Shown: positions 10,095-64,000, counted from the stretch's first letter. The stretch: DNA of 64,000 nt from an uncultured Gemmatimonadales bacterium (GCA_963825055.1 CAWGSK010000008.1:1-64000); one strand, 5' to 3'. Translations and numbers: made by a program. Notes: a model not told the origin generated them from the letters alone.

Positions 10095-10192
10095 GATAAC
10101 ACGAAAAGATACTTCCCGCGCACCGCCCCTCCGTGTCCTCCGTGCCTCCGTGGTAAACGACTGACGACTCAACGACCAACGACTCAACGATC
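10095..10192. repeat. intergenic repeat cluster (CTCCGTG-type x3; ACGACTCA-type)
   Basis: ctccgtgtcctccgtgcctccgtggt followed by acgactg-acgactca-acgacca-acgactca. Confidence 0.65.
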
Positions 10193-10257
10193 CGCCCCCT
10201 CTTGCGCCCCCTGCTCCAGTCAGCATACTGGGGAAATCACCTCTCATCCGGTGCCGC

Positions 10258-11421
10258 ATGCCTCTCAAAGTCATCCTCCCGGCGGCCCTTCTTCTCCTCC
10301 TGCCCGTGACCTCCCACGCGCAGAAGGACAAGCGGGATCCAAAGGTCCTCCTGGCCATCGTCCAGGCAGACTCCAATGACCCCGTAGCCCACTACGACCT
10401 GGCCCGGGCCTATCTCGAAAAGAAGAAATGGGACGAAGCCGAGTCGGAGCTCCGGGAAGCCGTGGCGCTGGCGCCGCAATACGGCGACGCCTACCTGGCC
10501 CTGGGCCTCATCCCGGAGTACCGGGGCGAGAAGTACTTCAAGAACCTGATCAAGAAGCAGGGGGAGCACGCTGCGGACTCGGTGGCCCTGGAAAGCATGG
10601 CCTACCAGCGCCGGGCCTACCTGCTGAACCCGCTGCTGGATCTGTCGGTGCTGCCGCGGGCACCCGAGGTTCCCACCCTGACGATCAACGGCCGGGGATA
10701 CGTGGTGTCCTGGGCCTGGCAGATGTCCAAGGGGATCAATGCCCTCCGGATGGAGAAATACCCGGAGGCGCTCCGGCGCTTTGGCGAAGTCGTCGGGGAC
10801 AGCGGTACGATCTACCGGTTCATTGCGCCGGACGCCGCCTTCTTCTATCACGCCATGGCCGCTGCCCGGATGCAGCGGTACGACGTCGCGGTGGAAGACC
10901 TCTGGCTGCTGGTGCAGCGGCGCGTGGAACGGGAGGAGCAGCGCCTCGGCTTCTCGATGGACACCAACGACTACCGCTACATGCTGGCCACGATGCTCTT
11001 CCTGGACGGCCGGTTCGACCAGGCCATCCCCGTGTTCAGGCGGACCCTGGAGTTCGACGTCGGTCTCTACCAGTCCCATGTGCAGCTGGCCCGCATGCAC
11101 GAGGCCCGGAAGGAGTGGGACGAGGCCGTGGCCGAGCGAGAGGCCGCCATCATGGCCAATCCCGATGACGCCACCCTGCTGGTGGACCTGGCCGCCACGC
11201 TCATCCAGGTGGGACGGATCCCCGATGCCATCACCCCACTCGAGCAGGCCACCCGCCAGGCGCCGCGCGACCCGCGCGGGTTCTACCTGCTGGGCATCGC
11301 CCGCATGCGCGCGGGTGACGTGGAGGCATCGCATGAGGCGTTCCGGCAGTTCCTGGCCATCGCGCCATCCAGATACGCGACGCAGATTACGGAGGTGAAA
11401 GAGGAACTGCGTGAACGGTGA
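10258..11421 (+). CDS. secreted tetratricopeptide repeat protein
   Basis: Signal peptide and multiple TPR-like repeats ('AHYDLARAYL', 'AYLALG', 'FYLLGIA'). Confidence 0.85.
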   Translation: MPLKVILPAALLLLLPVTSHAQKDKRDPKVLLAIVQADSNDPVAHYDLARAYLEKKKWDEAESELREAVALAPQYGDAYLALGLIPEYRGEKYFKNLIKKQGEHAADSVALESMAYQRRAYLLNPLLDLSVLPRAPEVPTLTINGRGYVVSWAWQMSKGINALRMEKYPEALRRFGEVVGDSGTIYRFIAPDAAFFYHAMAAARMQRYDVAVEDLWLLVQRRVEREEQRLGFSMDTNDYRYMLATMLFLDGRFDQAIPVFRRTLEFDVGLYQSHVQLARMHEARKEWDEAVAEREAAIMANPDDATLLVDLAATLIQVGRIPDAITPLEQATRQAPRDPRGFYLLGIARMRAGDVEASHEAFRQFLAIAPSRYATQITEVKEELRER

Positions 11422-11490
11422 ACGGTGAACGGTGAACGGTGATCGGTGAAAAGGCGGTCCGCCCTGTCCGCCCTGACCGCCCTGACCCTC
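11411..11490. repeat. tandem repeats (GTGAACG)x4-5 then (CCGCCCTGW)x3
   Basis: Read directly; the TPR stop TGA (11419-11421) lies in a repeat unit. Confidence 0.9.
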
Positions 11491-11512
11491 CCGTCCGCCC
11501 TTCCCTCCCCCC

Positions 11513-11542
11513 TTGACATTTCCATGTTATAACACATATTTT
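11513..11542 (+). promoter_or_regulatory. sigma70-like promoter overlapped by putative MarR operator TGTTATAACA
   Basis: TTGACA 11513-11518, TATTTT 11537-11542, perfect palindrome 11525-11534. Confidence 0.6.
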
Positions 11543-11546
11543 GTCC

Positions 11547-12014: not shown

Positions 12015-12034
12015 TCTCTTGTTGGCTTGTTATA

Positions 12035-12059
12035 TGTTACAACACTGAATGTTTCAACA
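12035..12059. promoter_or_regulatory. two putative MarR operators (TGTTACAACA, TGTTTCAACA)
   Basis: Same TGTTnnAACA motif as upstream of marR, at 12035-12044 and 12050-12059. Confidence 0.55.
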
Positions 12060-12075
12060 TGCAAGGAGCGAAACC

Positions 12076-12642: not shown

Positions 12643-12654
12643 GGGCGCGGTGCG

Positions 12655-12836
12655 GGGCAGAAGGGAGTAGGGAGTAGGGAGTAGGGAGTAGGCAGTAGGC
12701 AGAAGGGAGTAGGGAGGGAGTATGGGCGTTGAGTCGTTCATGCCGGGCGGCGGAATGCCCTTTTCACGACCTCCCTCCCTGCGACCGCCCTGTTCTCGAC
12801 CGCCTGTCCGCCTGTCCGCCTGCCCGCCTGTCCGCC
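12655..12836. repeat. tandem repeats (AGGGAGT)n at 12655-12721 and (CCGCCTGT)x4 at 12800-12836
   Basis: Read directly, between convergent genes. Confidence 0.9.
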
Positions 12837-12838
12837 AC

Positions 12839-14311
12839 CTACTTCCGATACCCCGCCACCATCTCCTCCAGGCTCTCCCCAGCCCGAAGGCGCTCGTACC
12901 AGCCCGCCGTGATCAGCCAGTCCCTGAACAGTGGGGCCAGCTCCGGTTCCACTCGACGCCCTCCATGGCGTCCACGAACTGACGCGACGTGCTGCCGCGT
13001 GGATCGGTACTTCCGGAACCAGGCGGACAGGGCCCGGTCGAAACTCTCCTCTCCGAGGGTGCGGTAGAGGGCGTAGAACATGAGCGCACCGGTGCGGTAG
13101 GATAGTCCTGTCATCCCCGCGCGCCCGTAGTCCAGCATGGGAACGCCGGGGTGTCCGGCGCTCTCGACGCGCTGTCACCTGCCCGGCCGCGATGTCGGCA
13201 AAGGTCTTCTCGAGCGGCCCGATCTCCCCCCGGTCCGCCGCCATGCGATAGGAGAGGAAGGTGGCCAGCCCTTCATTCCACCGCGGCGGGGCGCTGTCAA
13301 CGTCGGCCGGGTGCCAGAGATGGGCCAGTTCGTGGTACAGCTGGACGAGTTCAGTGGTATCCCGGAAGGCGTCGGCGGTCTGGATGATGCCCGCGTTCAG
13401 GTCCGCCTGCGAACCCCAGCCCTCCGGAATCTCGATCACATGCAGCCGCAGCCTGGATCCCACCGGACCGAACCAGCGGCCGTAGGTCCTCACGGCATCC
13501 TGCATGGCTCCCATGACGGTCCGCGCGCCCGACGAGTCCTCCGGGAAGTAGAAGACCCGGAGATCGCCCTCGGTCAGCGTTTCATACGGGGCGATCGCGA
13601 CAAGAAGGAAGGGGACAGGCGTATCGGACGCGAATGTCCAGGTGGACAGGCTGTCCGACTCGACCCTCGCCGTCGCGGCCGTTCCCGTTGCGACCACCAG
13701 GTCCGCCGGCACGGTCACGCGGAGGGCATAGGTGAACCCTCCTGCCGGCATCGCTCTCGACTGCTCGAACGACGGCACCCGGATCTGGGGGAACCCGAAG
13801 GACTCCGCGCGCAGGATCGTGAAGGAGCGCTCCACGTGGTCCCGCACGTAACGCATCCCCGTCTCGGTGTAGGGGACGAGAAAACCGGACCAGGCGATCG
13901 TGACGTCGGTCCGGGCGCCGGGGCTCGAGTGGAGTATCGAGGCGGACCCGGAGCTGGGTGACCTGGCGATTCGGCCAGTCCTCATAGACAACCACGTCCT
14001 GGGTGAAGTCGAGGCTCCTCCCGGCTCGTGTGACGGCGCCGGCCTGCATGAGCCGGCCGATCTGCACCGGGATGACACCAATCGGCGTCGTGCCCGTATT
14101 CTCCAGGGTCCAGATTGCCTCGCCGTCGATCGAAGCATCTGCATAGTTCACCCTGACCTGGAGGTCGAGGTGGACGGGAAGGATCGCAAGGCTGTCGGGT
14201 GGCGCAGCCGGTGACCGGGTCGATCCGGCGGTGCGGGTTCCGGGGGCGGCGGCGACGATGGACGCTCAGGAGGACGAGCCAACCCGTCACCCTGAGGCTG
14301 CTGCGGTGCAT
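12839..14311 (-). pseudogene. multiply frameshifted secreted M1/gluzincin aminopeptidase-like gene
   Basis: One protein logic split over several frames; 'YHELAHLW...WNEGLA' in the 12738-14144 ORF, 'Y.TGALMFYAL...LGEE.F' in the 12839-13138 ORF, signal-like start at 14311. Confidence 0.75.
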
Positions 14312-14396
14312 GGATCACTCCTCTCGCCGGGGGATCTCGGGGGCGGCTGTGGAACGATCAGGTGCAATCATGACGCTCCGGGAATCTATCGGGTTT

Positions 14397-14457
14397 CCGA
14401 CCGCCCCGACCGCCCCTTCCGCCCTGTCGTCGTCCGCCCTGTCGTCGTCCGCCCCGT
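14397..14457. repeat. C-rich degenerate repeat (CCGCCC...)
   Basis: ccgaccgccccgaccgcccc and (ccgccctgtcgtcgt)x2 upstream of the APC gene. Confidence 0.6.
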
Positions 14458-14516
14458 CTTGCCCTCCTCCGCCCCCATCCCTACACTGCGAACATCCCCA
14501 ATCCCACGGAGCGGCC

Positions 14517-17443: not shown

Positions 17444-17456
17444 CGTCCCGGGTGGG

Positions 17457-19213: not shown

Positions 19214-19328
19214 TCGGGTATCGGGTATCGGGGATCGGGACCGCTCACGGCGTGCTGTGCACGCTTCTTCATGAACGACTCAACGCCTGCCCGCTCCCTA
19301 CTCCCTACTCCCTACTCCCTACTGCCTA
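19214..19328. repeat. tandem repeats (TCGGGKA)x3-4 and (CTCCCTA)x4-5
   Basis: Read directly; the YfcC stop (CTA 19326-19328) lies in the last unit. Confidence 0.9.
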
Positions 19329-20648
19329 AAGAAGCGCCACCCCGATCCCCGCAATCCCCACCAGTGCTGCGATCAGCACCCCACCGATCGCGAACCTGAT
19401 CCACCGGCCGTAGGGCACCTTCGCCGCGAGCAGCACCGCCATCAGGGCTCCGTTCGTCGGCGTCAGGAGGTCGGTGAGGCCGGCGCCGGTCTGGTAGGCG
19501 AGAACGGGGACCTGGCGGGACATCTGGAGCAGGTCGGCCAGCGGCACCACGACCGGCATGGTAAGGGCGGCCTGCCCCGAGACGCTCGGCACGGGGATGT
19601 GAAGCAGGGCATGGAACGGGATCATGAGCAGCGCGCTGGCCAGGGCGGGGACATGGCCCAGCGGCTCGGCCAGGCCGTGAAGGATCGTGTCTATGACGCG
19701 ACCGTCGGCCAGCACGAGCGAGATGCTCCGCGCGACGCCGATGATCACCGCCGCGGGCAGCATCGCCTGCATGCCCTCCACGAAGCCATTGGTGGTGCCG
19801 CCCGTGCCGAGCCGGCCGAGGAAGCCTACGACGATGCCGCTGACAACGAACCCCGCCGACAGCTCGTTGAAACCCCAGTCGAGGCGGAGAGCGCCGTACA
19901 CGTACGCCGCCATGGGGGCGATGGCGATGAAGAGGATCAGCCAGTCGCGGCCCGTCATCGCCTGGTCCGCCGCGACCGGGGCGTGATCCACTGTCGAACG
20001 GTTCCGGCTGGCGTATCGGACGGTCCAGAGAATCCAGAGGCCGACACCCGCGCCCCACATGGTGATCCGCAGCCCGCCAGCGGAGAGTGGCGGCAGCTCC
20101 GCCAGCTTGAGGGCAATCCCGGCCTGGAACGGATTGATCGGGCTGAACGCGCTGCCCACCGCGGCCGCCCCGACGCTCACCGCGACCATGGTCACCGCGT
20201 CCACCCCGAGTCCCGCGCCCAGCACGAGCAGCACGGGCACCAGCGCGACGATCTCCTCCTGCATGTTTTCGAGCCCGCCCATGACGGCGAAGAGCACCGC
20301 GACAACGGGTAACGCCCAGAGCCCCCGCCCACGGAAGAGCGCCACCAGCCACCGTACCGCCCGGCCGAGCGTGCCCACCCGTTCGACGATCACCCACGCC
20401 GCCCCCACCAGCAGCACCAGCGCGATCACGTCGGCGCCCTCGATCAGCCCGCGCGGGATCGCCACCACCGCGGCGAACGGTCCGACCGGCGCCGCTTCGA
20501 CGCGATGGTAGGTGCCGGGTTCGACCACATTGCGGCCGGTGGCGGTGTCCACGTGCCGGTCGTACTCGCCGGCGGGAAGGACCCACGTGAGCGCCGCCGC
20601 GAGCGCGACGCAGCCGACCAGCAGGACGAGCGGGTGGGGAAGGCGCAT
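19326..20648 (-). CDS. YfcC/ArcD family transporter
   Basis: 'LPHPLVLL...LTWVLPAGEYDR', 'PINPF', 'PSVSGQA.LTMP', 'TPTNG'. Confidence 0.9.
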   Translation of the reverse strand: MRLPHPLVLLVGCVALAAALTWVLPAGEYDRHVDTATGRNVVEPGTYHRVEAAPVGPFAAVVAIPRGLIEGADVIALVLLVGAAWVIVERVGTLGRAVRWLVALFRGRGLWALPVVAVLFAVMGGLENMQEEIVALVPVLLVLGAGLGVDAVTMVAVSVGAAAVGSAFSPINPFQAGIALKLAELPPLSAGGLRITMWGAGVGLWILWTVRYASRNRSTVDHAPVAADQAMTGRDWLILFIAIAPMAAYVYGALRLDWGFNELSAGFVVSGIVVGFLGRLGTGGTTNGFVEGMQAMLPAAVIIGVARSISLVLADGRVIDTILHGLAEPLGHVPALASALLMIPFHALLHIPVPSVSGQAALTMPVVVPLADLLQMSRQVPVLAYQTGAGLTDLLTPTNGALMAVLLAAKVPYGRWIRFAIGGVLIAALVGIAGIGVALL

Positions 20649-20655
20649 GAGAGAA

Positions 20656-20676
20656 AGGGAGTAGGGAATAGGGAAG
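20656..20676. repeat. (AGGGART)x3
   Basis: Inverted relative to 19294-19328, so the pair brackets yfcC. Confidence 0.7.
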
Positions 20677-20755
20677 GGGCGGCCGGCCGGCCGCCCGCGT
20701 AGAATCGTTAACTCGTTGAGTGGCCCGCCGTCCGCCCTTGTTTCATCCCTGCCTG

Positions 20756-21339: not shown

Positions 21340-21513
21340 GGCGGACAGGCGGACAGGCGGACAGGCGGACAGGCGGACAGGCGGACAGGTGGACAGGCGG
21401 ACAGGCGGACAGGGCGGACAGGGCGGACAGGTGGACAGGCGGACAAGGCGGACAGGCGGACAGGCGGACAAGGCGGACAAGGCGGACAGGCGGACAGGCG
21501 GACAGGCGGACAA
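21340..21513. repeat. tandem repeat (GGCGGACA) about 21 units
   Basis: Read directly; 8-nt unit with 9-nt variants. Confidence 0.95.
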
Positions 21514-21528
21514 GGCGATCGGTGTTGG

Positions 21529-21581
21529 TGTCATTCCGAGCGTCCAGCGAGGAATCTTCTGTCCCGGGATCGAGTGCCTTC
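21529..21581. repeat. left half of a REP/MITE-like element
   Basis: TGTCATTCCGAGCGTCCAGCGAGGAATCTTC is identical to 27948-27978. Confidence 0.8.
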
Positions 21582-21593
21582 CATGATCCCGCG

Positions 21594-21625
21594 ACTCAAC
21601 CACTCAACCACTCAACCACTCAACC
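21594..21625. repeat. (ACTCAACC)x4
   Basis: Read directly. Confidence 0.9.
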
Positions 21626-22078: not shown

Positions 22079-22115
22079 GTCGCAATCTCGATCGTGGAGT
22101 GGAGGAACAGGGGGA

Positions 22116-22216
22116 GTGATTGGTGAGTAGTGAGTAGTGCATGGTCGGCAAGACCGGGGCGCGCTGATTGCACTCCGAGTCACCTTGAAGCACTACTCAC
22201 TAATCACTAATCACTG
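22116..22216. repeat. inverted heptamer arrays (GTGAKTR)n ... (CACTAMT)n
   Basis: Arms at 22116-22139 and 22191-22216; the Fpg stop lies in the right arm. Confidence 0.85.
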
Positions 22217-23100: not shown

Positions 23101-23230
23101 AGGGCGGACAAGGCGGACAGGACGGTCGACCAACGACTCAACGATTCAACCACTCAACGACCACTTGCCACTTGCTACTTGCCACCTGCCACCTGCCACT
23201 CGCCACTCGCCACTCGCCACTCGCTACTCG
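23101..23230. repeat. compound repeat: GGCGGACAA / ACGACTCA / CCACTTG / CGCCACT units
   Basis: Read directly; fills the GNAT-Fpg intergenic space. Confidence 0.85.
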
Positions 23231-23901
23231 CTGCTCTCCCATATCTGCCTCCCCACGTAGTCCTCCGGCTGTGCCAGGTCCTCGTTCAGCCACTCGATCA
23301 CGGCGGCCCATCCCAGGCTCGCGGGGTCGTTCCGCAGGTAGTCACCGACCACGGCAAGGACGTGGAAGTCCTGGCGCAACTGGAAAGAGAGCGTGGGGTC
23401 CGAGAGCTCGCCTGTGACGACCTTCCGGACGTAGCCCTCCGCGCTCATCTGCCCGGCGCAGCGGCTGTACCCCCGCAGGCGTGCACCCGCCCGGATCCGG
23501 AGCAGGTCCAGCCGCCGGACCAGGTCGCGACGCCACTGATAGAGCTTCTTCCCGATGCCCAGCCCCTGATACAACGGGTGAACCATGACCTCGGCGCCGT
23601 ACAGGGTGCGGCCTTCCGAATCGTGGTTGGCGAAGGTCCCGTGCTCGGTGAAGTCGCGCCAGTTGGTGTCCATGTCGTAGTCGTCCCAGAGGACGACCAG
23701 GCTGGCGGCCATGCCGACGACTGTCTTCCCACCCTCGACGGCGACGGCCTGGCCGTCGGCAAAGAGGGCATGATGGCTTTCGAGCTGCGCCAGGCTCCAG
23801 GAGGGGGAATGAGGGTACACGGCGCAGCAGAGGTCGATGATGCCGGGGAAATCCCCCGGCACCGTCGTGCGGACGCTGACCTCGTCCACCCCGCCTCTCA
23901 C
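23224..23901 (-). CDS. GNAT family acetyltransferase (nitrilase-associated type)
   Basis: 'LYGAEVMVHP.YQG.GIGKKLY', 'DPTLSFQL..DF'. Confidence 0.88.
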   Translation of the reverse strand: MRGGVDEVSVRTTVPGDFPGIIDLCCAVYPHSPSWSLAQLESHHALFADGQAVAVEGGKTVVGMAASLVVLWDDYDMDTNWRDFTEHGTFANHDSEGRTLYGAEVMVHPLYQGLGIGKKLYQWRRDLVRRLDLLRIRAGARLRGYSRCAGQMSAEGYVRKVVTGELSDPTLSFQLRQDFHVLAVVGDYLRNDPASLGWAAVIEWLNEDLAQPEDYVGRQIWESSE

Positions 23902-26059: not shown

Positions 26060-27904
26060 ATGTCTGACGAAGCGAAGAAGAAGAGAAAACTCGAGGCCGC
26101 GGTCGTCTGGCGCGAGGCCCGGACCCTGGTCTGGGCCCACCGGCGCAAGCTTTCGATCGGTTTTGGGCTGTTGCTGATCAACCGGCTGGCCGGCTTCGTG
26201 ATGCCTGCCAGCTCCAAGTACCTGATCGACCACGTCATCGGTGAACGTCGCGGACAACTGCTCCTGCCCCTGGCGGCGGCGGTGGGCGTGGCGACCCTGA
26301 TCCAGGCGGTCACGTCGTTCGGCCTGTCCCAGGTGCTGAGCCTGACCGCACAGCGGGCCATCGCGGACATGCGGAAGCGGGTCGAGGCGCACGTCCTCCG
26401 GCTCAATGTCGCGTTCTTCGACTCCACCAAGACCGGCGTGCTGATCTCCCGGATCATGACCGACGCCGAGGGCGTCCGGAACCTGGTCGGGACCGGCCTG
26501 GTGCAGCTCGTGGGCGGGCTCATCACCGCGACCATCGCCCTCTCATGGCTGTTCTACCTCAACTGGAAGCTGACGTCCGTAACCCTGCTGCTGCTGCTCG
26601 TCTTCGGGGGCGGGATGGCCTACGCCTTCAAGCGGCTGAGGCCCGTCTTCCGTGAGCGCAGCGTCATCAACGCCGAGGTGACGGGACGGCTGGCTGAATC
26701 GGTCGCGGGCATCCGGCTGGTCAAGACCTACACTGCCGAGCGGCGCGAGGAACTGGTCTTTGCGAAGGGCGTGCATCGGCTGTACCGGAACATCGCGAAG
26801 ACGATTACCGGCATCTCGGCAGTCTCGGCGCTGACTACGGTCATTGTGGGGGCGGTGGGCGTCCTCATGATCATCGGGGGCGGGCGATCCATCCTGGCCG
26901 GCACCATGACCATGGGCGGGTTCGTGATGTACCTGTTCCTGATCGGCCTTGTGGCCGCACCGATGGTCCAGATCGCCTCGATCGGGACACAGATCAGCGA
27001 GGCATTCGCCGGGCTTGACCGGATCCGGGAGCTGCTCCGCAAGCCGACCGAGGAAGCGGATGACAGCGGACTGGCGCCGGTACCCTCGGTGGACGGGGAA
27101 GTCGAGTTCAAGGATGTGACCTTTTCCTACGTCGAGGGCACGCCGGTGCTGCGCAACGTCTCGTTCCGCGCGCCGTCGGGTTCCACCACGGCGCTGGTTG
27201 GCTCGAGCGGGTCCGGCAAGAGCACGCTGATCAGCCTGGTCATGGCCTTCAACCGTCCCGACAGTGGGGAGATCCTGGTGGACAGCCGGCCCCTCCGGGA
27301 CCTGCGGCTTCGCGAATACCGCAGCCACCTGGGGGTCGTGCTCCAGGACAACTTCCTCTTCGACGGCACGATCGCGGAGAACATTGCCTTCTCCAGGCCC
27401 GGCGCAAGCCGGGGCCAGATCGTGTCGGCCGCGCAGGCAGCGCACTGCGAGGAATTCATCGAGGGGTTCGAGGACGGGTACGACACGATCGTAGGCGAGC
27501 GCGGCGTCAAGCTTTCCGGCGGCCAGCGCCAGCGGGTGGCCATCGCACGGGCGATCCTGGCCGACCCACGGATCCTCATCCTGGACGAGGCCACCAGCTC
27601 GCTCGACAGCGAGAGCGAGGGCATGATCCGCGACGGCCTCCGCCGCCTCCGGAGCGGCCGGACCACCTTCGTCATCGCCCACCGGCTCTCCACCATCGCC
27701 AGTGCCGACCAGATCCTGGTGCTGGAGCACGGCGAGATCGTCGAACGCGGAACCCAGGATGAGCTGCTCGAACTGGACGGCCGGTACCGGCAGCTGTACG
27801 ACAAGCAGTATGGCCTGGAGCGGGACCGGTTCATCAATCCGGGGGAAGACTTTACGCCGGAGCTGGATCTGGGCGTGACGGGGGGACAGTCAGGGCGGTC
27901 GTGA
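26060..27904 (+). CDS. ABC exporter, fused TMD-NBD (MsbA/MdlB-like)
   Basis: Walker A GSSGSGKS, signature LSGGQ, Walker B LILDE. Confidence 0.95.
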   Translation: MSDEAKKKRKLEAAVVWREARTLVWAHRRKLSIGFGLLLINRLAGFVMPASSKYLIDHVIGERRGQLLLPLAAAVGVATLIQAVTSFGLSQVLSLTAQRAIADMRKRVEAHVLRLNVAFFDSTKTGVLISRIMTDAEGVRNLVGTGLVQLVGGLITATIALSWLFYLNWKLTSVTLLLLLVFGGGMAYAFKRLRPVFRERSVINAEVTGRLAESVAGIRLVKTYTAERREELVFAKGVHRLYRNIAKTITGISAVSALTTVIVGAVGVLMIIGGGRSILAGTMTMGGFVMYLFLIGLVAAPMVQIASIGTQISEAFAGLDRIRELLRKPTEEADDSGLAPVPSVDGEVEFKDVTFSYVEGTPVLRNVSFRAPSGSTTALVGSSGSGKSTLISLVMAFNRPDSGEILVDSRPLRDLRLREYRSHLGVVLQDNFLFDGTIAENIAFSRPGASRGQIVSAAQAAHCEEFIEGFEDGYDTIVGERGVKLSGGQRQRVAIARAILADPRILILDEATSSLDSESEGMIRDGLRRLRSGRTTFVIAHRLSTIASADQILVLEHGEIVERGTQDELLELDGRYRQLYDKQYGLERDRFINPGEDFTPELDLGVTGGQSGRS

Positions 27905-27945
27905 ACAGGGCGGACGAGAAACAGGGCGGACAGGCGGACGGCGTT

Positions 27946-28070
27946 ATTGTCATTCCGAGCGTCCAGCGAGGAATCTTCCCACCCGGTATCGAACGCCTTT
28001 GCAAGCTCGACGAAGGTCGATTGCAGGCTGACAAGATCCTTCGGGCCTTGACGGCCCTCAGGATGACAAT
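27946..28070. repeat. REP/MITE-like inverted-repeat element (125 bp)
   Basis: Termini ATTGTCATTCCGAG / CTCAGGATGACAAT (12 of 14 complementary); inner GAATCTT / AAGATCC; flanked by GGCGGAC and CACCCGA units. Confidence 0.8.
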
Positions 28071-28100
28071 ACACCCGACACCCGACACCCGGTTGTTACC

Positions 28101-28805
28101 ATGCGCATCCGCACACTGCACAAATGGATCGGCGTCGGCGTCGGCCTCATCCTCGTCATGTGGCTGGTGACCGGCATCGTGATGGGCTTGCCCAATTCCT
28201 CCGGTGTCGGGCCGGGACGCACCAGTCCCGACGTCGCCTGGATGGACGCGACGCTCTCACCGGCCGATGCGGTCCGCCTGGTGCAGGAACAGGACACGAC
28301 CGGTGCGGAACTCAACTCCGTCACGCTGCACACGGTACTGGAGCAGCCGGTCTACCGGGTGGCGCTCAAGCGGCAGCGTGGGACCCTGATCTCCGCCGTG
28401 ACCGGCGACCGGATCGAGATCGACCGGGACATGGCGGTCCAGATCGCGAACGCCACCTTCACGACCCCACCCAGGGTCACCTCCGTCGAGCGCCTGACGG
28501 CCCACTCGATGACCTACCCCAACGGCAGGCTCCCGGTCTTCCGGATCGCCTACAACGACGAGCCCTCGACCGTTCTCTTCATTATCCAGGATGAAGGCAC
28601 CGTGGTGAGCACCGACCGCCGCCGCCGCACGCGCGCCACGCTCGCGAGCCTGCACGATTTCCACGCGCTTCGGGTCACGCTGGGGCGTGCGTCGATTCAG
28701 GAGGTAGTGCTGGTCGGGAGCGGCCTGATCTGCCTGGTCACGACGCTGATGGGCTACTGGCTGGCGCTGCCGGGGAGGTGGAGAAGGAGGGCGGCAAAGC
28801 GGTGA
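28101..28805 (+). CDS. PepSY-associated TM domain protein
   Basis: 'LHKWIG...W..TG', two PepSY-like segments, 'LHDF', C-terminal TM. Confidence 0.85.
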   Translation: MRIRTLHKWIGVGVGLILVMWLVTGIVMGLPNSSGVGPGRTSPDVAWMDATLSPADAVRLVQEQDTTGAELNSVTLHTVLEQPVYRVALKRQRGTLISAVTGDRIEIDRDMAVQIANATFTTPPRVTSVERLTAHSMTYPNGRLPVFRIAYNDEPSTVLFIIQDEGTVVSTDRRRRTRATLASLHDFHALRVTLGRASIQEVVLVGSGLICLVTTLMGYWLALPGRWRRRAAKR

Positions 28806-28930
28806 ACGGAAAGGCGGTGAGCGGTAAGCGGTAAGCGGTAAACGGTGAACGGGAACTGCACGCGGGGCGAGATGGTACCGTACGAGGTTGGCACCGTTCA
28901 CCGCTCACCGTTCACCGTTCACCGCTCACG
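28801..28930. repeat. inverted heptamer arrays (GCGGTAA/ACGGTGA)n ... (CACCGTT/CACCGCT)x5
   Basis: Between convergent genes; both stop codons lie in repeat units. Confidence 0.9.
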
Positions 28931-31751: not shown

Positions 31752-32032
31752 AGGGGCGGTCGGGGTGGTCCGGAGGGAAGATACGGCCGGGTGGCGGGCG
31801 GTCAGGGCGGTCCAAAGGGAATACCCGGTCTGGAATCGGGCGGTCGAGGCGGTCGACCGACCTGTCCGCCGCGTCCGTCTCGTCCGCCCGCCGCCGGACC
31901 CCTGCTCCCCTGTACACCGTCCCGACCGCCCGCTTCCAGGACGTGTCTCTCCGCCAGACCGCCCCGACCGCCCGATTCCAGGACGCATCTCTCTCCTCCC
32001 GACCGCCACGACCGCCCTGTTCACGACCGCCC
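31752..32032. repeat. degenerate GGCGGTC ... GACCGCC repeats with an internal duplication
   Basis: 'cccgaccgcccg.ttccaggacg..tctctc' occurs twice (about 31921 and 31962). Confidence 0.6.
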
Positions 32033-42169: not shown

Positions 42170-42246
42170 GACGGTGAACGGTAAGCGGTGAACGGTGAAC
42201 GGTGAACGGGTGGACGGGCCGTTCACCGCTCACCGTTGACGTTCAC
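42170..42246. repeat. inverted heptamer arrays (ACGGTGA)n ... (CCGTTCA)n
   Basis: Fills the whole pckA-HD gap; the pckA stop lies in a unit. Confidence 0.9.
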
Positions 42247-43844
42247 GCTGTCCCGGCTGGCCCGGCCTTCCGCACGCTGTCCGGTACTTCGCCTTCAAAC
42301 TTCTTGAAGTTGTCCCGGAACATGCCCGCCAGCTTCTGCGCCTGGGCATCGTACGCTGCCGGCTCGGCCCACGTGCTGCGTGGGTCAAGCAGTTGCGGGG
42401 GGACACCCGGCACCGCAGTCGGCACTTTCACCCCGAAGATGGGATCGGTGCGGTGTTCCGCGTCCTCCAGCGCGCCGGAGAGGGCCGCGGCGACCATGGC
42501 CCGCGTGAACGGGAGCTTGATCCGGCTCCCGGTGCCGTAGGGACCGCCCGTCCAGCCGGTGTTCACCAGCCAGACGTGGACGCCGTGCTGCTTGATTTTC
42601 TCGCCAAGCATCGTGGCATAGACGCCGGGATTGAGCGGGAGGAACGGCGCGCCGAAGCAGGCGCTGAAGGTTGCGGCCGGTTCGGTAACGCCCCGCTCGG
42701 TGCCGGCCACCTTGGCGGTGTAACCCGAGAGGAAGTGATACATCGCCTGGTCCGGCGTGAGCCGCGCGATTGGCGGCATCACCCCGAAGGCATCGGCGGT
42801 CAGGAACACGATGTTCCTCGGGTGCCCGCCCACGCCGTTCTCGACATGGTTCGGGATGGCATCAATGGGGTAGCTCGCCCGGGTGTTCTCCGTGATGGCC
42901 TGGCTGTCGAAATCCACCGTCCGGCGGGTCTCGTCCAGGTCGATGTTCTCGAGGATGGTCCCGAACTGCTGGGTCGCGGCGTAGATCTGGGGCTCGGTCT
43001 CCGGACTGAGTCTGATGACCTTGGCGTAGCAGCCACCCTCGAAGTTGAACACCCCGTGGTCGCTCCAGCCGTGCTCGTCATCACCGATAAGACGGCGCGT
43101 CGGGTCGGCGGAGAGCGTGGTCTTGCCGGTGCCGGAGAGCCCGAAGAAGACGGCGGTGTCCCCGTCCCCGCCGATGTTCGCGCTGCAGTGCATGGCCAGG
43201 ACGCCGCGCTTCGGGAGCAGGTAGTTGAGGACGGTGAAGATCGCCTTCTTCATCTCGCCGGCATAGCGCGTGCCGCCGATCAGCACCATGCGGCGCCCGA
43301 AGTGCAGCACGATGAACGTGCCGGTCTTCGTCCCGTGCACGGCCGGGTCGGCCTGGCACTCGGGGGCATGCAGCACGGTGAAGCCGGGCGCAAAACCGGG
43401 GAGGTCCTCTGCCGGTGGACGGATGAACATGTTCCGGACGAAGAGGGCCTGCCAGGCATTGGGCGTCACGAAACGCACCGGCAGCCGGTAGTCGGGGTCC
43501 GCGCCCCCGTAGAGATCCTGCAGGAAGACCTCCTGGCCGTCCAGGTGCTCCTGCACGAGCGCGAGGAGGGCGTCGAACTTCTCCTCCGGCAGCGCCGCGT
43601 TCTTCTCCCACCATATGTCCGCCTCGGACGACGCGTCCCGGACGACGAACTTGTCGTTGGGTGAGCGGCCGGTATGCGGCGTGGTCTCGACCGAAAGGGC
43701 GCCGCCCGTCACCAGGCGTCCCTCGTCGCGCCGGAGGGCGTGCTCGTAGAGGCGGGCCGCGTTCAGGTTCGGATGCACCTGGGCCGGCGTGAAGCCGAGT
43801 CCCGTGAGATTCGGGGCCGGCGGGGTGGCCGTGCGAGCGCTCAT
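42243..43844 (-). CDS. pckA: phosphoenolpyruvate carboxykinase (ATP)
   Basis: 'TGRSP.DK', 'YAGEMKK', '[11 protein letters not shown]', 'IGDDEHGW', 'NFEGGCYAK'. Confidence 0.97.
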
Positions 43845-49825: not shown

Positions 49826-49900
49826 TTGAGCCGCCTAGTCGTTGAGTCGTTGAGTCGTTACTTCAGGCTACTCAACCACTCAACTACCCAACTACTCAAC
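49826..49900. repeat. inverted octamer arrays (GTTGAGTC)n ... (ACTCAACY)n
   Basis: Between convergent genes; the envC stop lies in a unit. Confidence 0.88.
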
Positions 49901-54445: not shown

Positions 54446-54586
54446 GGGTGTCGGGTATGGGGTATCGGGGATCGGGGATCGGGGATCGTTGGTTGTTGAA
54501 TGGTTGAGTCGTTGAGTTGGCAGTCGGCAATCGGCAGTCGGCAATCGTCCGTCCCGACCGCCTTGACCGTCCTGACCGCCCTGTCC
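54446..54586. repeat. compound repeat TCGGGGA / GTTGAGTC / GGCARTC then CCGYCYTGA
   Basis: Read directly. Confidence 0.88.
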
Positions 54587-57414: not shown

Positions 57415-57427
57415 GACGGCAAACCTC

Positions 57428-58423: not shown

Positions 58424-58594
58424 GTGAGAGTGACTAGTGACTAGTGACTGGTGACTGGTGACTGGTGACTGGTGATTGGTGATTGGTGATTGGTGACTGG
58501 TGATTGGTGATTGAAATCGGTTACAGGGGTGGTGGATCGCCGCTGGACTTCGCCCCTCTATCCCTAGTCACTAATCACTAGTCACTAGTCACTG
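58424..58594. repeat. inverted heptamer arrays (GTGAYTR)x~12 ... (CACTART)x~4
   Basis: Occupies essentially the whole lepA-GT9 gap. Confidence 0.93.
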
Positions 58595-58596
58595 TC

Positions 58597-60396
<1,800 letters not shown>

Positions 60397-60419
60397 GGGG
60401 GAGAATATAGTGGGGAGAG

Positions 60420-60546
60420 GGTGGCGCGGAGGGGGTGGCAGGCGGCTTGTGGCAAGTGGCGAGTGGCAAGTGGTAGGCGGCCAGCAACAGGCGCTCCGAT
60501 TTCTTCAGTCCTCCTCCACTTGCCACTTGCTACTTCCCACTTGCCG
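60420..60546. repeat. inverted heptamer arrays (GTGGCRA)n ... (CCACTTG)n
   Basis: Arms at about 60449-60473 and 60516-60545. Confidence 0.85.
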
Positions 60547-60552
60547 CCTCCC

Positions 60553-61647
60553 TCACCCGCACTTCACCTCCCCTTCCTCCCATCCCGGCGGAGTCAGGGC
60601 ACCGACCCCCATGGCGCAGGTCAGCCTGAGGTCCGGGTGGGTGGCGACGGCTACCCAGGAGAAACCGGAGTGGAGGTAGATACCCAGGGTGGCGCCGGAG
60701 GTCGGCGAGAGCGCCAGGCTGTCGGCGGTCGAGGCGTACGCCCCGTGGTTGGAGAAATACATCTCCTGCGCCATGAGGATGCTGCGGAGGTCCGCCGCGA
60801 TCGACTCCACCAGTTCCGGGTGGGCGGCAGCCTCGGCCACCGGGTTGTAGGGCGGTGGCGCAACGGTACGGTCCGGTGCAGCCGGCGTGGGGGTTCCCTG
60901 AAGGGCATAGAGGGCGATCCGCTCGACGTCGTCCCGGTCCCGCTCGAGGCCCAGCACCCAGTCCGGTCCGAAGTCCTGGACCTCGAAGCCGGCCGGCAGC
61001 CGGGCGCTCGCGATCGGGTGGCCGTCCACGTGCACGGTCCAGGCGCTGTCGCCGGGGTTCCTCGTCCACAGGCTTCCGCTCGACGTCCACCGCGCCTCGC
61101 GCACCCGGCCAGCCGGTATGTCATCGTCCAGCGCGTCCAGCGCTGTCCGGACCGTCTCCGCGCTCACCGTCGCGGGAGGAAGAGTGGCCCAGGTCTGGCG
61201 GTAGACGAGCACGTTCCCCGGAAACTCCGTCGCGTTACCCGGGAGGAGTGGGGCCGTCCGGATGCCGTCGTTGCTGCGGTCAATCAGGGTCAGACGGCGG
61301 TTGCCGCTGTCGAGCACCTTGAGGGTGTCCTCGTTGCCGGCCAGGAAGAGCCTTCCGGTGTACTCCCCAGGCCCCTTTCCCTGTCGTCCCATGGTCTTGA
61401 GAAAATGTCCGGCGCTGTCGAACCAGCGGAGTTCGTGTGTTCCGGAGTTGGCGAGAAGGATCGTGCCGTCGTCCAGCCGGACAGACGAGGTCACCTGGTC
61501 CAGCTCGGTTGGGCCAGTACCTTCCGCGCCGCCGATGACAAGGGATGGTTCTGAAGCGGTGGACCAGGTCGGCAGTGGGGGAGCGGAAGCGGGCTCGCTG
61601 CCACAGGCGGAGAGGAGGATGATCACGACAGCAGCGAGGTTGCGCAT
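60553..61647 (-). CDS. lipoprotein with beta-propeller-like region and C-terminal pilin-like domain
   Basis: 'LSAC' lipobox; 'FD..G.FL...GRQGKGPGEY'; C-terminal 'DLRSILMAQEMYF..HG.Y...C...C'. Confidence 0.65.
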   Translation of the reverse strand: MRNLAAVVIILLSACGSEPASAPPLPTWSTASEPSLVIGGAEGTGPTELDQVTSSVRLDDGTILLANSGTHELRWFDSAGHFLKTMGRQGKGPGEYTGRLFLAGNEDTLKVLDSGNRRLTLIDRSNDGIRTAPLLPGNATEFPGNVLVYRQTWATLPPATVSAETVRTALDALDDDIPAGRVREARWTSSGSLWTRNPGDSAWTVHVDGHPIASARLPAGFEVQDFGPDWVLGLERDRDDVERIALYALQGTPTPAAPDRTVAPPPYNPVAEAAAHPELVESIAADLRSILMAQEMYFSNHGAYASTADSLALSPTSGATLGIYLHSGFSWVAVATHPDLRLTCAMGVGALTPPGWEEGEVKCG

Positions 61648-61768
61648 GTTTGCGAGGCCGAGGGTCGAGAGTCGGATGCGTGAAAGTACCGCACTCCGCG
61701 CATCGGATGGCACTGGATGACTGATAAGTCTATTCATGTCCGGCGGATCGGCCAGGGCGCCACCCGTG

Positions 61769-63316
61769 TCAGTGAACGGCGTACACCACCGCCCGACCCA
61801 GCACTTCCCGCAGCGCCGCGGCAAACTCCGCCAGCGTCGCGGGCTTCTTGAGCGTCTTCACGATGCCGGCTCCCTCCAGTCGCTGTTCCGGCAGCTGGGC
61901 CAGGTGGCCGGTCAGCAGGATGACCGGCGCCGTATTGCCGAGGGCGCGGAGCCGCTCGGCAAGCTCGACGCCGGTGGTGCCGGGCATCGAGTAGTCGGTG
62001 ATGATGGCGGAGAAGCTGTTGGGAGATTCGGTGAACCGGGCGAGGGCCTCGTCCGGTCCGTTCGCCGTGGTGACGAGGTAACCGAGGGTCTCCACCCGGC
62101 GGCGCCCGACCCGCACGAGGGAGGGCTCGTCGTCCACGTACAGCAGGCGCTCGCCCTGGCCGGTGGGGAGCGCGTTCGAGAGCGGCGGTGCCTCGTCCTC
62201 GCTGTGCTCCAGCGCGGGGAAGTAGCACCGGACCATGGTGCCTTCCCCCGGTTCACTTTCCACGGACACGGCGCCCTCGTGATCCCGCAGGATCCCGTGG
62301 ACCATGGACAGTCCCAGGCCGCTGCCTTCGCCCGGCCCTTTCGTGGTGAAGAAGGGCTCGAAGGCCCGCTGCCGGGTCCGCTCGTCCATGCCGGCGCCGG
62401 TATCCTGGACCGTCATCACCAGGTACGGGCCCTCGTGGAGCGAGGGGTTGGCCCGGACCGCGCTGTCAGTCATGTAAGCCGGCGTGAGGCCGATGGCCAG
62501 GGTTCCGCCGTCCGCCATGGCGTGGGCGGCGTTCGTGGCGAGGTTCATCAGGACCTGCTCGACCGCGGTGGTGTCCGCCATGACCCGGCTGGCCCCTGAG
62601 GCCAGGTTGACCTCGATGCTGATTTCGGCGGGGAGCGTGGCGCGCAGGAGGCCGGCGGTATCCCGCAGGACCGCCGCCAGGTCGGTGGGAAGCTGGCGGC
62701 TGACCTGGCGCCGGCTGAACCGGAGGATCCGGTCTACCAGCGTCCGCCCGCGGGTGGCCGCGTTGAGGACCTGCTGCAGGTCAGAAACGGCCTGCGGGTT
62801 GTCATCCAGACCGCGTACCACGAGTTCGGTGTATCCGATGATGCCCGCGAGGAGGTTGTTGAAGTCGTGCGCGATGCCACCCGCCAGGGTGCCGATGGCC
62901 TCCATCTTCTGGGCCTGCCGCAGCATTTCCTGCAGGCGGTCCCGCTCCTCCTCCGCAGCCTTCCGCGCGCTGATGTCGACGATGGAGCTGAGGACAAAGA
63001 GGCCCTCATCGGTCCTGACCGGCGTGAGCCCGATCTCGATGGGTACCTCGGTGCCGTCCTTGCGGCGACCATGGAGTTCGCGCCCCACCCCGAGCTTGAG
63101 CGGCTGGGGATCCTGGAGGTAGGCCTCCAGCTGACCGGGGTGCTTGCCATGCATGTTGAGGGGAACGAGCAGGTTTACCGGCTGTCCAATCAGCTCTTGA
63201 CGATCGTAACCGAACAGCCGTTCGACTTCCCGGTTGACGAGAACGATGGTCCCGGAGGCGTCCACCATGACGAGGCCGCTGGGTGAGTGCTCAACCGCAG
63301 CCCGAAGGCGTTCCAC
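61769..63316 (-). CDS. PAS-domain hybrid sensor histidine kinase (CckA-like)
   Basis: PAS, 'GGIAHDFNN', 'NLATNA', 'DTGAGM', 'FEPFFTTK...GLGL', receiver 'VDDE...TD..MP'. Confidence 0.95.
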   Translation of the reverse strand: MERLRAAVEHSPSGLVMVDASGTIVLVNREVERLFGYDRQELIGQPVNLLVPLNMHGKHPGQLEAYLQDPQPLKLGVGRELHGRRKDGTEVPIEIGLTPVRTDEGLFVLSSIVDISARKAAEEERDRLQEMLRQAQKMEAIGTLAGGIAHDFNNLLAGIIGYTELVVRGLDDNPQAVSDLQQVLNAATRGRTLVDRILRFSRRQVSRQLPTDLAAVLRDTAGLLRATLPAEISIEVNLASGASRVMADTTAVEQVLMNLATNAAHAMADGGTLAIGLTPAYMTDSAVRANPSLHEGPYLVMTVQDTGAGMDERTRQRAFEPFFTTKGPGEGSGLGLSMVHGILRDHEGAVSVESEPGEGTMVRCYFPALEHSEDEAPPLSNALPTGQGERLLYVDDEPSLVRVGRRRVETLGYLVTTANGPDEALARFTESPNSFSAIITDYSMPGTTGVELAERLRALGNTAPVILLTGHLAQLPEQRLEGAGIVKTLKKPATLAEFAAALREVLGRAVVYAVH

Positions 63317-63432
63317 TGTATCAGGGAAGATTCAGGAGTGAGGCGCCCCGGAGCCGGGGCGCAGGGACCGCTGGCATCGGAGAAATGTGGGGCAGGGAAC
63401 GGGTGCGGGATGTGACGGGGGTCACGGGGGGA

Positions 63433-63508
63433 GGGAGTAGGGAGTAGGGAGTAGGGGGACGAGGTCACGGAGGGACGCCTATTCCCTATTCCCTATTCCC
63501 TACTCCCT
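63433..63508. repeat. inverted heptamer arrays (AGGGAGT)x3 ... (AYTCCCT)x4
   Basis: The CMD stop (CTA 63500-63502) lies in the right arm. Confidence 0.9.
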
Positions 63509-63856
63509 GCTCCCCGTTCCCTGCAGTTCCTCCAGCCGCTCCATCGCCCGCCTCAAATGCGGGACCACGATACTCCCACCCACGATCAGCGACACGCTGA
63601 AGATCTCCATGAGCTGGTCCATGGTGACCCCTTCCTCGTGGCAGCGGATGACGTGGTACGTGATGCAGTCGTCGCAGCGGAGGACCATGCTGGCCGCGAG
63701 GCCCAGCATTTCCTTGGTGCGGGTATCGAGCGCGCCGTTTTCGTAGGTCCGCCCGTCCAGGGCAAAGAAACGGTTCACCGTGAGGTTGCCCGCGGCGAAG
63801 ATGCGCTCGTTCATGCGCTCGCGGAAGGCGTTGAAGTCGGCGATGGACTCGGACAT
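63500..63856 (-). CDS. carboxymuconolactone decarboxylase/AhpD family protein
   Basis: 'GALD..TKEMLGL.ASMVLRCDDCITYH'. Confidence 0.9.
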   Translation of the reverse strand: MSESIADFNAFRERMNERIFAAGNLTVNRFFALDGRTYENGALDTRTKEMLGLAASMVLRCDDCITYHVIRCHEEGVTMDQLMEIFSVSLIVGGSIVVPHLRRAMERLEELQGTGSRE

Positions 63857-63881
63857 GCGGGGCCCGTGGAGAGGGGGATCT

Positions 63882-64000
63882 GGAAAGCGTGAAAGGTAAA
63901 AGGTAAAAGACCTCACCCCCCAGCCCCCTCTCCAAGTCGTGTGTGGAGAGGGCGAGGGCACTTCAGTCACGGATCTCTGACCGTCCTGACCGCCCTGTCC
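63882..64000. repeat. (AAAGGTA)n, REP-like hairpin CCCTCTCCA...TGGAGAGGG (63926-63952), then (TGACCGYCC)n
   Basis: Read directly; runs off the end of the window. Confidence 0.75.

Follow-up and report, generated by a model that had tools for sequence, protein, structure and literature searches.

Polarised 7–9-nt tandem arrays at gene junctions of a Gemmatimonadales genome, likely remnants of TIGR02436 cassettes, and a codon bias in the genes beside them

Gene junctions of an uncultured Gemmatimonadales bacterium carry short tandem arrays that, on balance, are likely to be gene-less arms of TIGR02436 (four-helix-bundle) cassettes re-colonising the same junctions by a DNA-level process, with a strand polarity that continues for about 50 nt into the flanking codons. 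As cassette remnants, they probably mark hot spots where insertion has recurred, and strand-biased change of the DNA accompanies them. Intergenic heptamer repeats have been known in bacteria for years, and a mechanism has never been given. The window analysed here is a stretch of 64,000 nt (GCA_963825055.1, CAWGSK010000008.1:1-64000), and the interpretation offered in its initial annotation, that the arrays are footprints or target sites of a junction-targeting element or an RNA-processing/insulator code, is partly supported.

Junction arrays in the window and across the genome

Tandem 7–9-nt arrays at gene junctions are confirmed where they had first been placed. Tandem Repeats Finder returned 38 rows of period 7–9 in the window, compared with 0–1 per shuffle in 20 dinucleotide shuffles. 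Between 10128 and 64000, 19 junctions carry arrays (about 17 had been annotated), 17 of them two-armed and two with a lone C-arm, and all eight unit types named at the outset exist. The G-arm is on the left and the C-arm on the right in 17/17 two-armed junctions, one of which has only a weak C side; eight are cognate inverted pairs and nine join different families (Table 1). A run of 9-mers at 35673-35783 falls within an FHA-domain gene and is no junction.

Table 1. Junction arrays and a flanking codon example in the window, and four-helix-bundle paralogues of the same genome (G000)
Feature	Position	Strand
Lone C-rich arms (CCTCCGTGT-type, then AACGACTC), divergent gap	10128..10190	
Mixed pair: G arm GTGAACG, which provides a TPR gene's stop codon, C arm GTCCGCCCT; promoter-like TTGACA..TATAAC comes after	11411..11514	
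Arms of two families, AGGGAGT (G) and CCGCCTGT (C), in convergent gap after yceI	12656..12836	
Lone C arm, GGCGG(A/T)C family, upstream of amino-acid permease gene	14397..14458	
Mixed pair: G arm GGTATCG/GGGGATC, C arm CTCCCTA	19210..19328	
Codon halo example: last codons of DcuC-family gene, four-fold sites 11 G / 0 C on strand pointing into junction	19326..19390	-
Short AGGGAGT G arm and weak C-rich side	20656..20740	
Mixed pair: GGCGGACA x21.5 copies; central partial GTCATTCCGAGC palindromic element from 21530; C arm ACTCAACC	21340..21625	
Cognate pair, GTGA(C/G/T)T(A/G) family	22115..22215	
Mixed, stacked: short GGCGGACA G arm; C arms CGACTCAA then CCACTTG	23101..23231	
Mixed pair: GGCGGAC-type G arm; central full GTCAT..GATGAC palindromic element (27949-28067); C arm ACACCCG	27891..28091	
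Cognate GTGAACG pair, convergent gap before uvrA-like gene; long hairpin fold, z -6.4	28797..28929	
Degenerate GGCGG(A/T)C-family pair, divergent gap	31839..32017	
Cognate GTGAACG pair, pckA-HD junction	42171..42247	
Cognate GTTGAGT(C/G) pair, convergent gap; hairpin z -5.3	49837..49900	
Three stacked G arms (GGGTATC, GTTGAGTC, GGCAATC) opposite single C arm GACCGCCCT	54446..54583	
Cognate GTGACT(A/G) pair, lepA-GT9 junction	58430..58593	
Cognate GTGGCAA pair upstream of lepA; hairpin z -5.5	60449..60552	
Cognate AGGGAGT pair downstream of CMD gene	63432..63524	
G arm AAAGGTA, CCCCCTCTCC-type stem, C arm CTGACCGCC; junction continues to contig position 64010, ahead of DUF559 element	63892..64000	
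Four-helix-bundle paralogues with unit	C13:112771 GTGACTA; C13:276175 GTGGCAA; C12:680444 AGGGAGT; C7:210410 GGCGGACG	

The whole genome contains 750 arrays, and 398 of the 438 7-mer and 156 of the 169 8-mer arrays are intergenic (intergenic DNA makes up 12% of the genome). The annotated polarity holds genome-wide: neighbouring arrays of opposite skew run G>C in 152 cases and C>G in none within 150 bp, and in 159 and 3 cases, respectively, within 300 bp. Since a G-left/C-right order is its own reverse complement, the proposal that any transcript meets the G-arm first stands as a geometric corollary; lone arms in tandem gaps more often place C than G on the mRNA (67 vs 41). The G-first order is not universal beyond this genome, where 90 tandem-armed cassettes comprise 75 G-first, 8 C-first and 7 neutral ones. 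The idea that stop codons within the units set the polarity holds for four or five families and fails for GGCGG(A/T)C, GGGTATC and GGTCGA, and GGG is present in just two or three of the nine families. Arm polarity has already been published for one unit in Xanthomonas (passages of PMC4692102).

Several arm families and a second, palindromic element accumulate at the junction centre. Of 162 pairs, 74 are cognate (22 after shuffling), and the cognate fraction drops with rising unit GC (rho -0.86, 7 families); 86 pairs combine different families. Nested insertion of whole cassettes predicts mirror-nested stacks and was rejected, with 0 of 21 stacks so arranged. Rearrangement as the origin of mixed pairs found no support in an underpowered comparison with G017 (800 kb), in which 5/12 cognate and 2/11 mixed pairs were syntenic (p 0.37); two mixed pairs occupy conserved junctions. 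The GIY-YIG-type palindrome, GIY-YIG being one of the genes annotated as possibly enclosed, nests at a junction centre in 18 of 23 copies and does not define these junctions. No terminal motif is common to the unit families. Simple deletion footprints are weakly supported: the spacers of 41 empty cognate pairs do not match resident cassette interiors (17.7 vs 16.8, p 0.21), and no target-site duplication was found, the longest direct match of outer flanks being 3.72 compared with 3.70 for swapped flanks. Like the missing mirror-nesting, both results count against the cassette reading too.

TIGR02436 cassettes and orthologous junctions

All eight TIGR02436 genes of the genome are enclosed by cognate arms, using seven of the nine unit families, and all eight are located between called protein-coding genes, none inside an rRNA gene. 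The suspected link to four-helix-bundle genes is thus borne out; GxxExxY and DUF559, likewise put forward as enclosed genes, both have their own, different repeats. Cassettes have the order G-arm, gene, C-arm, with each unit family in one orientation. A wider profile recovered no ninth four-helix-bundle gene in this genome, and the missing resident gene for two of nine families counts against the cassette reading. The genome's two Y1 transposase (PF01797) genes have flanks of other kinds, and no reverse transcriptase was found in the 87% complete assembly; both count against the cassette reading.

Among cassettes of the family and order, 68/96 have inverted flanks beyond the 99th percentile of mismatched pairs, and tandem inverted arms occur at 49 of 74 scorable loci in many phyla. 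On quick trees of the cassette protein, arm period (7 vs 8-10) changes 5 times, compared with 16.5 times after shuffling (0/500 shuffles as low), a concordance that can be plain co-inheritance, kin not being independent. The dispersed arrays of a genome match its own cassette arms: shared 10-mers were found for 344 of 590 arrays here (at most 34 with the arms of other genomes), 7/9 in G018 and 3/5 in G016. The more cassettes a genome has, the denser its arrays (rho 0.71, 16 genomes), and four genomes with no cassette match have 4 arrays in 312 kb. Counting against the cassette reading are the weak own-arm matches in G017 (5/37), G015 (6/30), G019 (2/9) and G007 (1/8), and the single array per 80 kb in each of G013 (5 genes) and G031 (8 genes). 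The cassette protein has the fold of Avd (TM 0.82 to 4DWL, 8% identity); its structural matches are non-catalytic bundles only, which also counts against that reading.

The expected presence/absence variation was found at orthologous junctions. At lepA-GT9, 11/94 have clear arrays and 80/94 none; in relatives CMD adjoins lepA, a junction that G056 has filled and others have arms-only or bare. At pckA-HD, arrays occur in 3/29 (the window's included), with a different unit in each. The best relative among the metagenome contigs has 70% identity, too distant for the direction of substitution to be polarised, and contig comparison revealed no informative change at arms.

A codon halo in flanking host genes

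What is new here is that the junction polarity continues into the codons of host genes. On the inward strand, the one with its 3′ end towards the centre, four-fold sites no more than 30 nt from an arm have G:C odds of about 8, an excess that fades by 75 nt. The last 10 codons of 204 armed genes have G 0.75 and C 0.10-0.13, compared with 0.40/0.39 in 1891 controls, and the halo is mirrored at 59 armed gene starts. At aligned identical residues, C>G exceeds the reverse 43:5 (controls 324:321), the substitutions being unpolarised; the start-side test gave 11:6, which is not significant and counts against the preferred reading. The halo is independent of transcription direction, being equal across four transcription contexts (0.61-0.70). 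Inward-strand bases rank G>A>T>C, i.e., C is lost; this additive ranking is as compatible with selection as with mutation, a further point against the preferred reading. About 330 gene ends are altered both in their synonymous bases and in the amino acids of the tail (K 2.4x, P 0.6x), and TAG stops are commoner beside arms (138/249 vs 730/3082).

Gene ends lacking arms have a skew of 0.000 ± 0.009, so the halo is not a sorting of existing variation; on this ground and its absence from the G017 orthologues of 22 halo genes, a pre-existing target preference was rejected. Relatives show the halo (G180:C68 at 45 gene ends), and outer flanks are G-rich even beside C-first (6/8) or neutral (7/7) arms. 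In a comparison bearing on Rho, viral contigs of unassigned hosts had a weak skew in the same direction (0.09-0.14 and 0.12-0.25). A decayed repeat was rejected as its source: in-register excess reaches 1-2 units out and no further, and 7/8 families have no own-family 5-mer excess (GTGGCAA left out, its values all being inflated, probably by faulty slicing at a contig edge). An extended specific hairpin was likewise rejected, as true flanks equal swapped flanks. Weighing against the preferred reading, the halo is weak at lepA (G64:C34 vs 417:305), and correlates neither between left and right sides nor with arm length or purity. No description of it was found in the openly accessible literature searched, a search partly aimed at skew and synonymous sites.

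Candidate explanations and related systems

The G-versus-C bias reaching about 50 bases into neighbouring codons likely points to a DNA-level process. In the cassette reading, the four-helix-bundle protein would bind its own unit and, once bound, may license arm insertion or copying at the junction centre. Mixed pairs would stem from later visits by other families and loss of strong GC-rich palindromes, and the strand-biased substitutions from repeated opening and repair beside the arm. With eight paralogues, seven different words and targets in the hundreds in one genome, cognate binding is directly testable. The codon halo provides a new measurable footprint, and any mechanism must account for a G>A>T>C bias that is tied to the strand, spans about 50 nt and does not depend on transcription, which sharply limits the candidates.

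The host may instead have retained cassette-derived arms as two-way RNA signals: any RNA leaving the centre would carry a Rho-loading zone, C-rich and G-poor over about 100 nt, or loose purine/pyrimidine stems would be cut by RNase III, the halo then being under selection; we regard this as possible though unlikely. Rho has a C>T>A>G-like base preference, with which the outward-strand ranking C>T>A>G agrees; the zone length fits Rho loading, and the genome has two rho-like genes. Against this, the halo loses no strength at centres that no gene transcript traverses or at divergent genes' 5′ ends, and flank complementarity is no greater than in swapped flanks. Cyanobacteria are not known to have Rho, yet heptamer arrays are plentiful there. 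Occupancy is highest in convergent gaps (30%, vs 14% for divergent and 9% for tandem), a stop codon lies within 15 nt of the arm in 194/267, and hairpin folding is strong for cognate and moderate for 2/3 mixed pairs, all as RNA signals would have it, and Xanthomonas repeats are mostly transcribed according to passages of PMC4692102. The transcribed strand shows no wobble asymmetry (G-U vs A-C; 140 vs 125; 60 vs 60), and with 86/162 pairs mixed and the flanking bias equal in four transcription contexts, the annotated RNA-processing/insulator code gains no support from the sequence. Junction centres could also be recurrent break points, at which a cassette-guided polymerase adds units to two free 3′ ends, telomerase-style, before rejoining. 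This would explain why the 3′-facing strand is G-rich on either side, why arms can be single, mixed or stacked without nesting, why spacers lack homology and why no duplication is seen, and it agrees with the Avd fold, Avd being the partner of the DGR reverse transcriptase, and with a GIY-YIG nuclease element at centres. We nevertheless consider it distinctly unlikely: the genome (87% complete) has no reverse transcriptase (PF00078) match and no template RNA was identified, outer arm ends show no telomere-like degeneracy (0.125 vs 0.114, p 0.26), the halo does not extend the unit in register, and cognate pairs are three-fold above chance.

Slippage repeats in locally skewed junctions, with four-helix-bundle genes just borrowing the genome's repeats, form the least probable account, and one that we give very little credence. 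Slippage of 7 nt has been proposed for such repeats (in the text of PMC4679880), copy number varies freely, array-free gaps have a slight skew in the same direction as arrays (530 vs 353), and viral contigs carry similar arrays with a four-helix-bundle gene within 1.2 kb at 0/161 loci. Ordinary slippage is largely refuted by the 152:0 polarity, the 8/8 enclosed genes and a period that follows the tree; unit sets specific to each genome and the correlation of density with cassette number also tell against it, and a strong skew flip occurs in only 18/1249 array-free gaps, most of the 14 inspected bearing degenerate arms. The initial view that slippage alone is insufficient for the polarity is therefore supported. 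A more far-reaching reading, which we consider distinctly unlikely, is that the four-helix-bundle protein, one paralogue per word, steers a host enzyme such that junctions would be opened and the word written on both 3′ ends telomerase-style, the same reaction replacing C by G, A or T for about 50 nt into the flanking genes, and a selfish family thereby steadily recoding the ends of several hundred host genes. If true, such word-writing would account for bacterial heptamer repeats generally.

Several known systems resemble the arrays in part. Those in layout include REPINs/RAYT, with many extragenic inverted doublets and several families per genome, each beside its own single-copy gene (as outlined in PMC3116915, Bertels and Rainey 2011; PMC3733652, Di Nocera et al. 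2013); here, 7/9 families have a cognate single-copy gene. Unlike REPINs, the arms are variable-length tandem 7-9-mers, not 20-40-nt palindromic REPs with a GTAG or CGTC tag, half of the doublets are hetero-family, and the gene encodes a four-helix bundle, not an HUH (Y1) transposase as in RAYT. ORF-bearing 23S rRNA IVS (S23p) place the same protein family within inverted flanks (PMC4990558, Warrier et al. 2016), whereas the cassettes here have protein-coding neighbours and are accompanied by hundreds of copies that lack the gene. S23p-type bundles and Avd are grouped together by CDD (as given in part of PMC10053308). Unlike in DGRs, the bias is a C loss over about 50 nt and not adenine mutagenesis, and a reverse transcriptase match is lacking; unlike in MITEs, target-site duplications are absent and spacers do not derive from the cassette interior (p 0.21).

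Beggiatoaceae TAACTGA repeats are also oriented intergenic heptamer arrays, with all-frame stop codons at gene ends, but have one unit and mostly single arms before start codons (text of PMC4679880, MacGregor 2015, which contains neither "helix bundle" nor "intervening"). The Xanthomonas/Nostoc GGGAATC and GGGGA(C/T)T repeats are intergenic heptamer arrays of about four units in convergent inverted pairs, with the G-rich strand just past stop codons (sense) or upstream (antisense) (passages of PMC4692102, Rehm et al. 2015). The present arrays are likewise intergenic, with convergent inverted pairs and the G-rich strand after the stop codon; unlike those one-unit repeats, they have nine families of 7-9 nt, mixed and stacked arms, and mostly units without G-runs for quadruplexes. 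The main text of that paper contains none of "helix", "S23", "synonymous" or "Rho", so the cassette link and codon halo are not described there. Its supplement lists, as no. 15, a Xanthomonas GGGAATC repeat overlapping the beginning of XCC0516, the solved four-helix-bundle protein, which favours the cassette reading.

Oriented arrays and their resident cassettes

Tandem Repeats Finder returned 38 rows of period 7-9 in the window, versus 0-1 in 20 shuffles, and together with direct reading gave 19 array-bearing gene junctions, bearing out the approximately 17 of the initial annotation. Two arms are present at 17 of these, the G-rich arm lying on the left and the C-rich arm on the right in 17/17; eight are inverted pairs of one repeat family (cognate) and nine combine two families (mixed). 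The assembly holding the window (G000; 3.53 Mb, 35 contigs, 87% complete, 6% contamination) was annotated with our own dicodon gene caller (3082 genes, 88% coding), of which individual calls may be wrong. Genome-wide there are 750 arrays of period 7-9, with ~90% of the 7- and 8-mers lying between genes. Tabulation of opposite-skew neighbours no more than 150 bp apart confirmed the single polarity (G>C 152, C>G 0), and in two of the three gaps with another arm order there is a gene that the caller missed (DUF559, four-helix bundle). The related statement that a transcript meets the G-rich arm first follows from geometry, because G-left/C-right reads alike on both strands. Arrays occupy 108/364 convergent, 52/362 divergent, and 203/2321 tandem gaps. 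The median distance of an arm is 7 nt to a stop codon and 49 nt to a start, and in 90/249 cases the array contains the stop codon. Flanks are distinct for 579 of 589 classified arrays. A long minus-strand ORF (window 12738-14144) runs through a stop-free GGCGGACA arm (region 12738-12840), and its C-terminus is probably extended by this repeat.

Each of the eight genes of the four-helix-bundle family TIGR02436 in G000 has a G arm upstream and a complementary C arm past its stop codon; a wider profile recovered no ninth gene. The cassettes use seven repeat units, or words: GGTCGAGA, GTGACTA, GTGGCAA, AGGGAGT, GTTGAGTG, GTGAACG, and GGCGG(A/T)C, the last common to two sister paralogues. Six of the eight units originally named are such words, while no resident gene in this assembly uses GGGTATC or GGCAATC. 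The proposed cargo was supported for four-helix-bundle genes (8/8 between arms) and not for GxxExxY, DUF559, and GIY-YIG genes, which have repeats of their own. The family matches Xcc0516 (PDB 2GSC; 43% identity, TM 0.95), BT_0352 (2RLD), and, more distantly, Avd (4DWL; TM 0.82). Eight proteins with seven words form a testable set, from which, together with the codon halo described below, the case draws its interest.

Relatives and orthologous junctions

The family is present in 33 of 40 relatives. Of 89 loci fetched around family matches 88 were kept; with the eight G000 cassettes these make 96, of which 68 score higher for inverted flanks than the 99th percentile for mismatched pairs. Among 50 loci with a clear period, period 7 versus 8-10 changed 5 times on a quick tree (16.5 when shuffled), an agreement that co-inheritance alone could produce. 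In G000 (344/590) and the relatives G018 (7/9) and G016 (3/5), dispersed arrays have 10-mers in common chiefly with cassette arms of the same genome; such sharing is weak in G017, G015, G019, and G007, only part of whose cassettes were fetched. Array density correlates with the number of these genes (rho 0.71, 16 genomes; exceptions G013 and G031). Across phyla, 80 loci were fetched and 74 could be scored; tandem inverted arms occur at 49, with 7-mers in 44 of the 49. Pooled with the relatives, 75/90 tandem-armed loci are G-first, 8 C-first, and 7 neutral.

The predicted presence/absence variation was found at CMD-lepA: of 10 junctions, one is filled by a cassette (G056, 583 bp), several have an arm pair, and several are bare. 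At the two junctions first singled out for comparison arrays vary, with clear arrays of mostly differing units at 11 of 94 lepA-GT9 junctions (80 without array) and arrays at 3/29 for pckA-HD, but no lepA-GT9 allele is filled. CMD and lepA are adjacent in 10 relatives; in G000 they are separated by beta-propeller and PAS histidine kinase genes (window 60553-63268), an arm pair marking each boundary, and new genes may enter at armed junctions. The G000 cassette at contig C2:172499 is missing from the syntenic gap in G017.

A codon halo beside the arms

On the strand pointing into the junction, host genes beside arms show a G-over-C bias at four-fold codon sites, a new observation not found in the literature searched. 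With codons inside the array excluded, the last ten codons of 204 genes ending at a G arm have 75% G and 10-13% C at these sites, versus ~40% for either base in the 1891 other genes; where a gene starts ≤30 nt from a C arm (59 genes), its first five codons average 72% C and 9% G. On the inward strand, G:C odds by distance from the arm are 8.6 at 4-15 nt, 7.9 at 16-30, 3.3 at 31-45, 1.9 at 46-60, 1.3 at 61-75, 1.2 at 76-90, and 1.0 at 91-120. The window contributes 137 G and 23 C over 20 gene ends (a hand-added sum including one doubtful gene call). Odds ratios are near-additive (G/C 5.8, A/C 2.8, T/C 1.8-2.0, AGG/CGG 2.9, TTG/CTG 2.8), with no dependence on the neighbouring base.

Where aligned residues are identical (28 genes), C in the relative and G in G000 outnumbers the reverse 43:5 (controls 324:321), so the changes are truly synonymous; the same test at gene starts gave 11:6 in 14 genes, which is not significant. 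No bias was detected in G017 orthologues of 22 halo genes, nor any depletion of G-rich cases among unarmed gene ends. The halo is equal for all nine families and does not differ among cognate, mixed, and lone arms or among the four transcription contexts; the skew flip at the junction centre occurs even beside lone arms. It is present in relatives too, and sequence outside C-first arms is also G-rich. At the filled G056 cassette it is absent at CMD, and arms-only alleles mostly have it, a single hint that it accumulates after insertion; the eight G000 cassettes do carry it (81 G, 28 C). The halo at lepA is weak.

Proposed mechanism, known systems, and other elements

The 162 G>C pairs of G000 comprise 74 cognate pairs, where 22 are expected, plus 86 mixed and 2 unclassified ones. 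Pairing is weak between arms of mixed pairs (-15.8 vs -35.1 kcal/mol), and across seven families with ≥15 arms the cognate fraction drops from 0.75 (45% GC family) to 0.19 (76% GC family; rho -0.86), which suggests loss of strong palindromes. No stack was mirror-nested (0/21), spacers did not match cassette interiors, and no target-site duplication was found. GGGTATC, the family without a resident gene, takes the outermost place in 11 of 12 stacked neighbours, as arrival of new arms at the centre would predict.

RNA-level readings of the arrays predicted wobble asymmetry within them and transcription dependence of the halo; neither was found. We therefore lean towards a DNA-level process that would re-use junction centres, with putative action of the cognate four-helix-bundle protein as its licence. 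The outward-strand ranking at the junctions, C>T>A>G, agrees with the base preference of Rho; together with two rho-like genes (contigs C34:80899 and C15:84971, one below the TIGR00767 cut-off) it keeps alive the interpretation of junctions as Rho zones, which we consider unlikely. End-addition at breaks best accounts for mixed, lone, and non-nested arms, but no reverse transcriptase to serve as polymerase was found in the 87% complete assembly, and this origin appears more improbable still. The initial annotation was confirmed as observation and partly supported as interpretation.

Xanthomonas GGGAATC repeats have the same polarity, with 70 convergent pairs, and repeat 15 overlaps the XCC0516 start; the text searched does not mention the four-helix-bundle protein family (Rehm et al., PMC4692102). 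Oriented TAACTGA arrays were described by MacGregor (PMC4679880). REPIN/RAYT systems resemble the arrays in layout but have transposase and REP features that the arrays of G000 do not share (PMC3116915; PMC3733652), and 23S rRNA intervening sequences encode the same protein but at a location not shared by G000 cassettes (PMC4990558; PMC10053308).

Other elements noted (C, contigs of G000; C8 holds the window)
Feature	Location	Remarks
Palindromic GTCAT..GATGAC element	window 21530-21590 and 27949-28067	23 copies in genome
DUF559 gene	C8:64000-64950	bracketed by repeated CCCCCTCTCC..GGAGAGGGGG stems; motif 40 copies in genome
Two GxxExxY genes	C13:290996 and C30:97637	inverted CACGGAG-type flanks, 9-nt period
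Lone right arm, CACGGAG type	window 10128-10152	
Two Y1 (IS200/RAYT-like) transposase genes	C20:60213 and C3:21452	tandem GGGCGACCGGACGGTCGCCC palindromes on flanks of the C20 gene, REPtron-like
Integron cassette array	window 1-8050	at least five attC-like sites (CTAACAAG..GTTAG)

Copies of the palindromic element flank a small GIY-YIG gene (C3:91267); 18 of the 23 lie on the centre side of an arm, 10 of these between two arms. The integron cassettes encode a DUF6946 protein, an erythromycin-esterase-family protein, and a glyoxalase, and a PQQ dehydrogenase cassette appears to be in broken pieces; no 7-9-mer arms occur within the array. None of 161 viral-contig loci searched holds a four-helix-bundle gene, and GTCATT(A/G/T) inverted arm pairs lie at gene junctions of viral contigs L374, L400, and L371. 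A strongly AT-rich stretch at C11:105840, in a genome of 68% GC, is possibly a contaminant or foreign insert.
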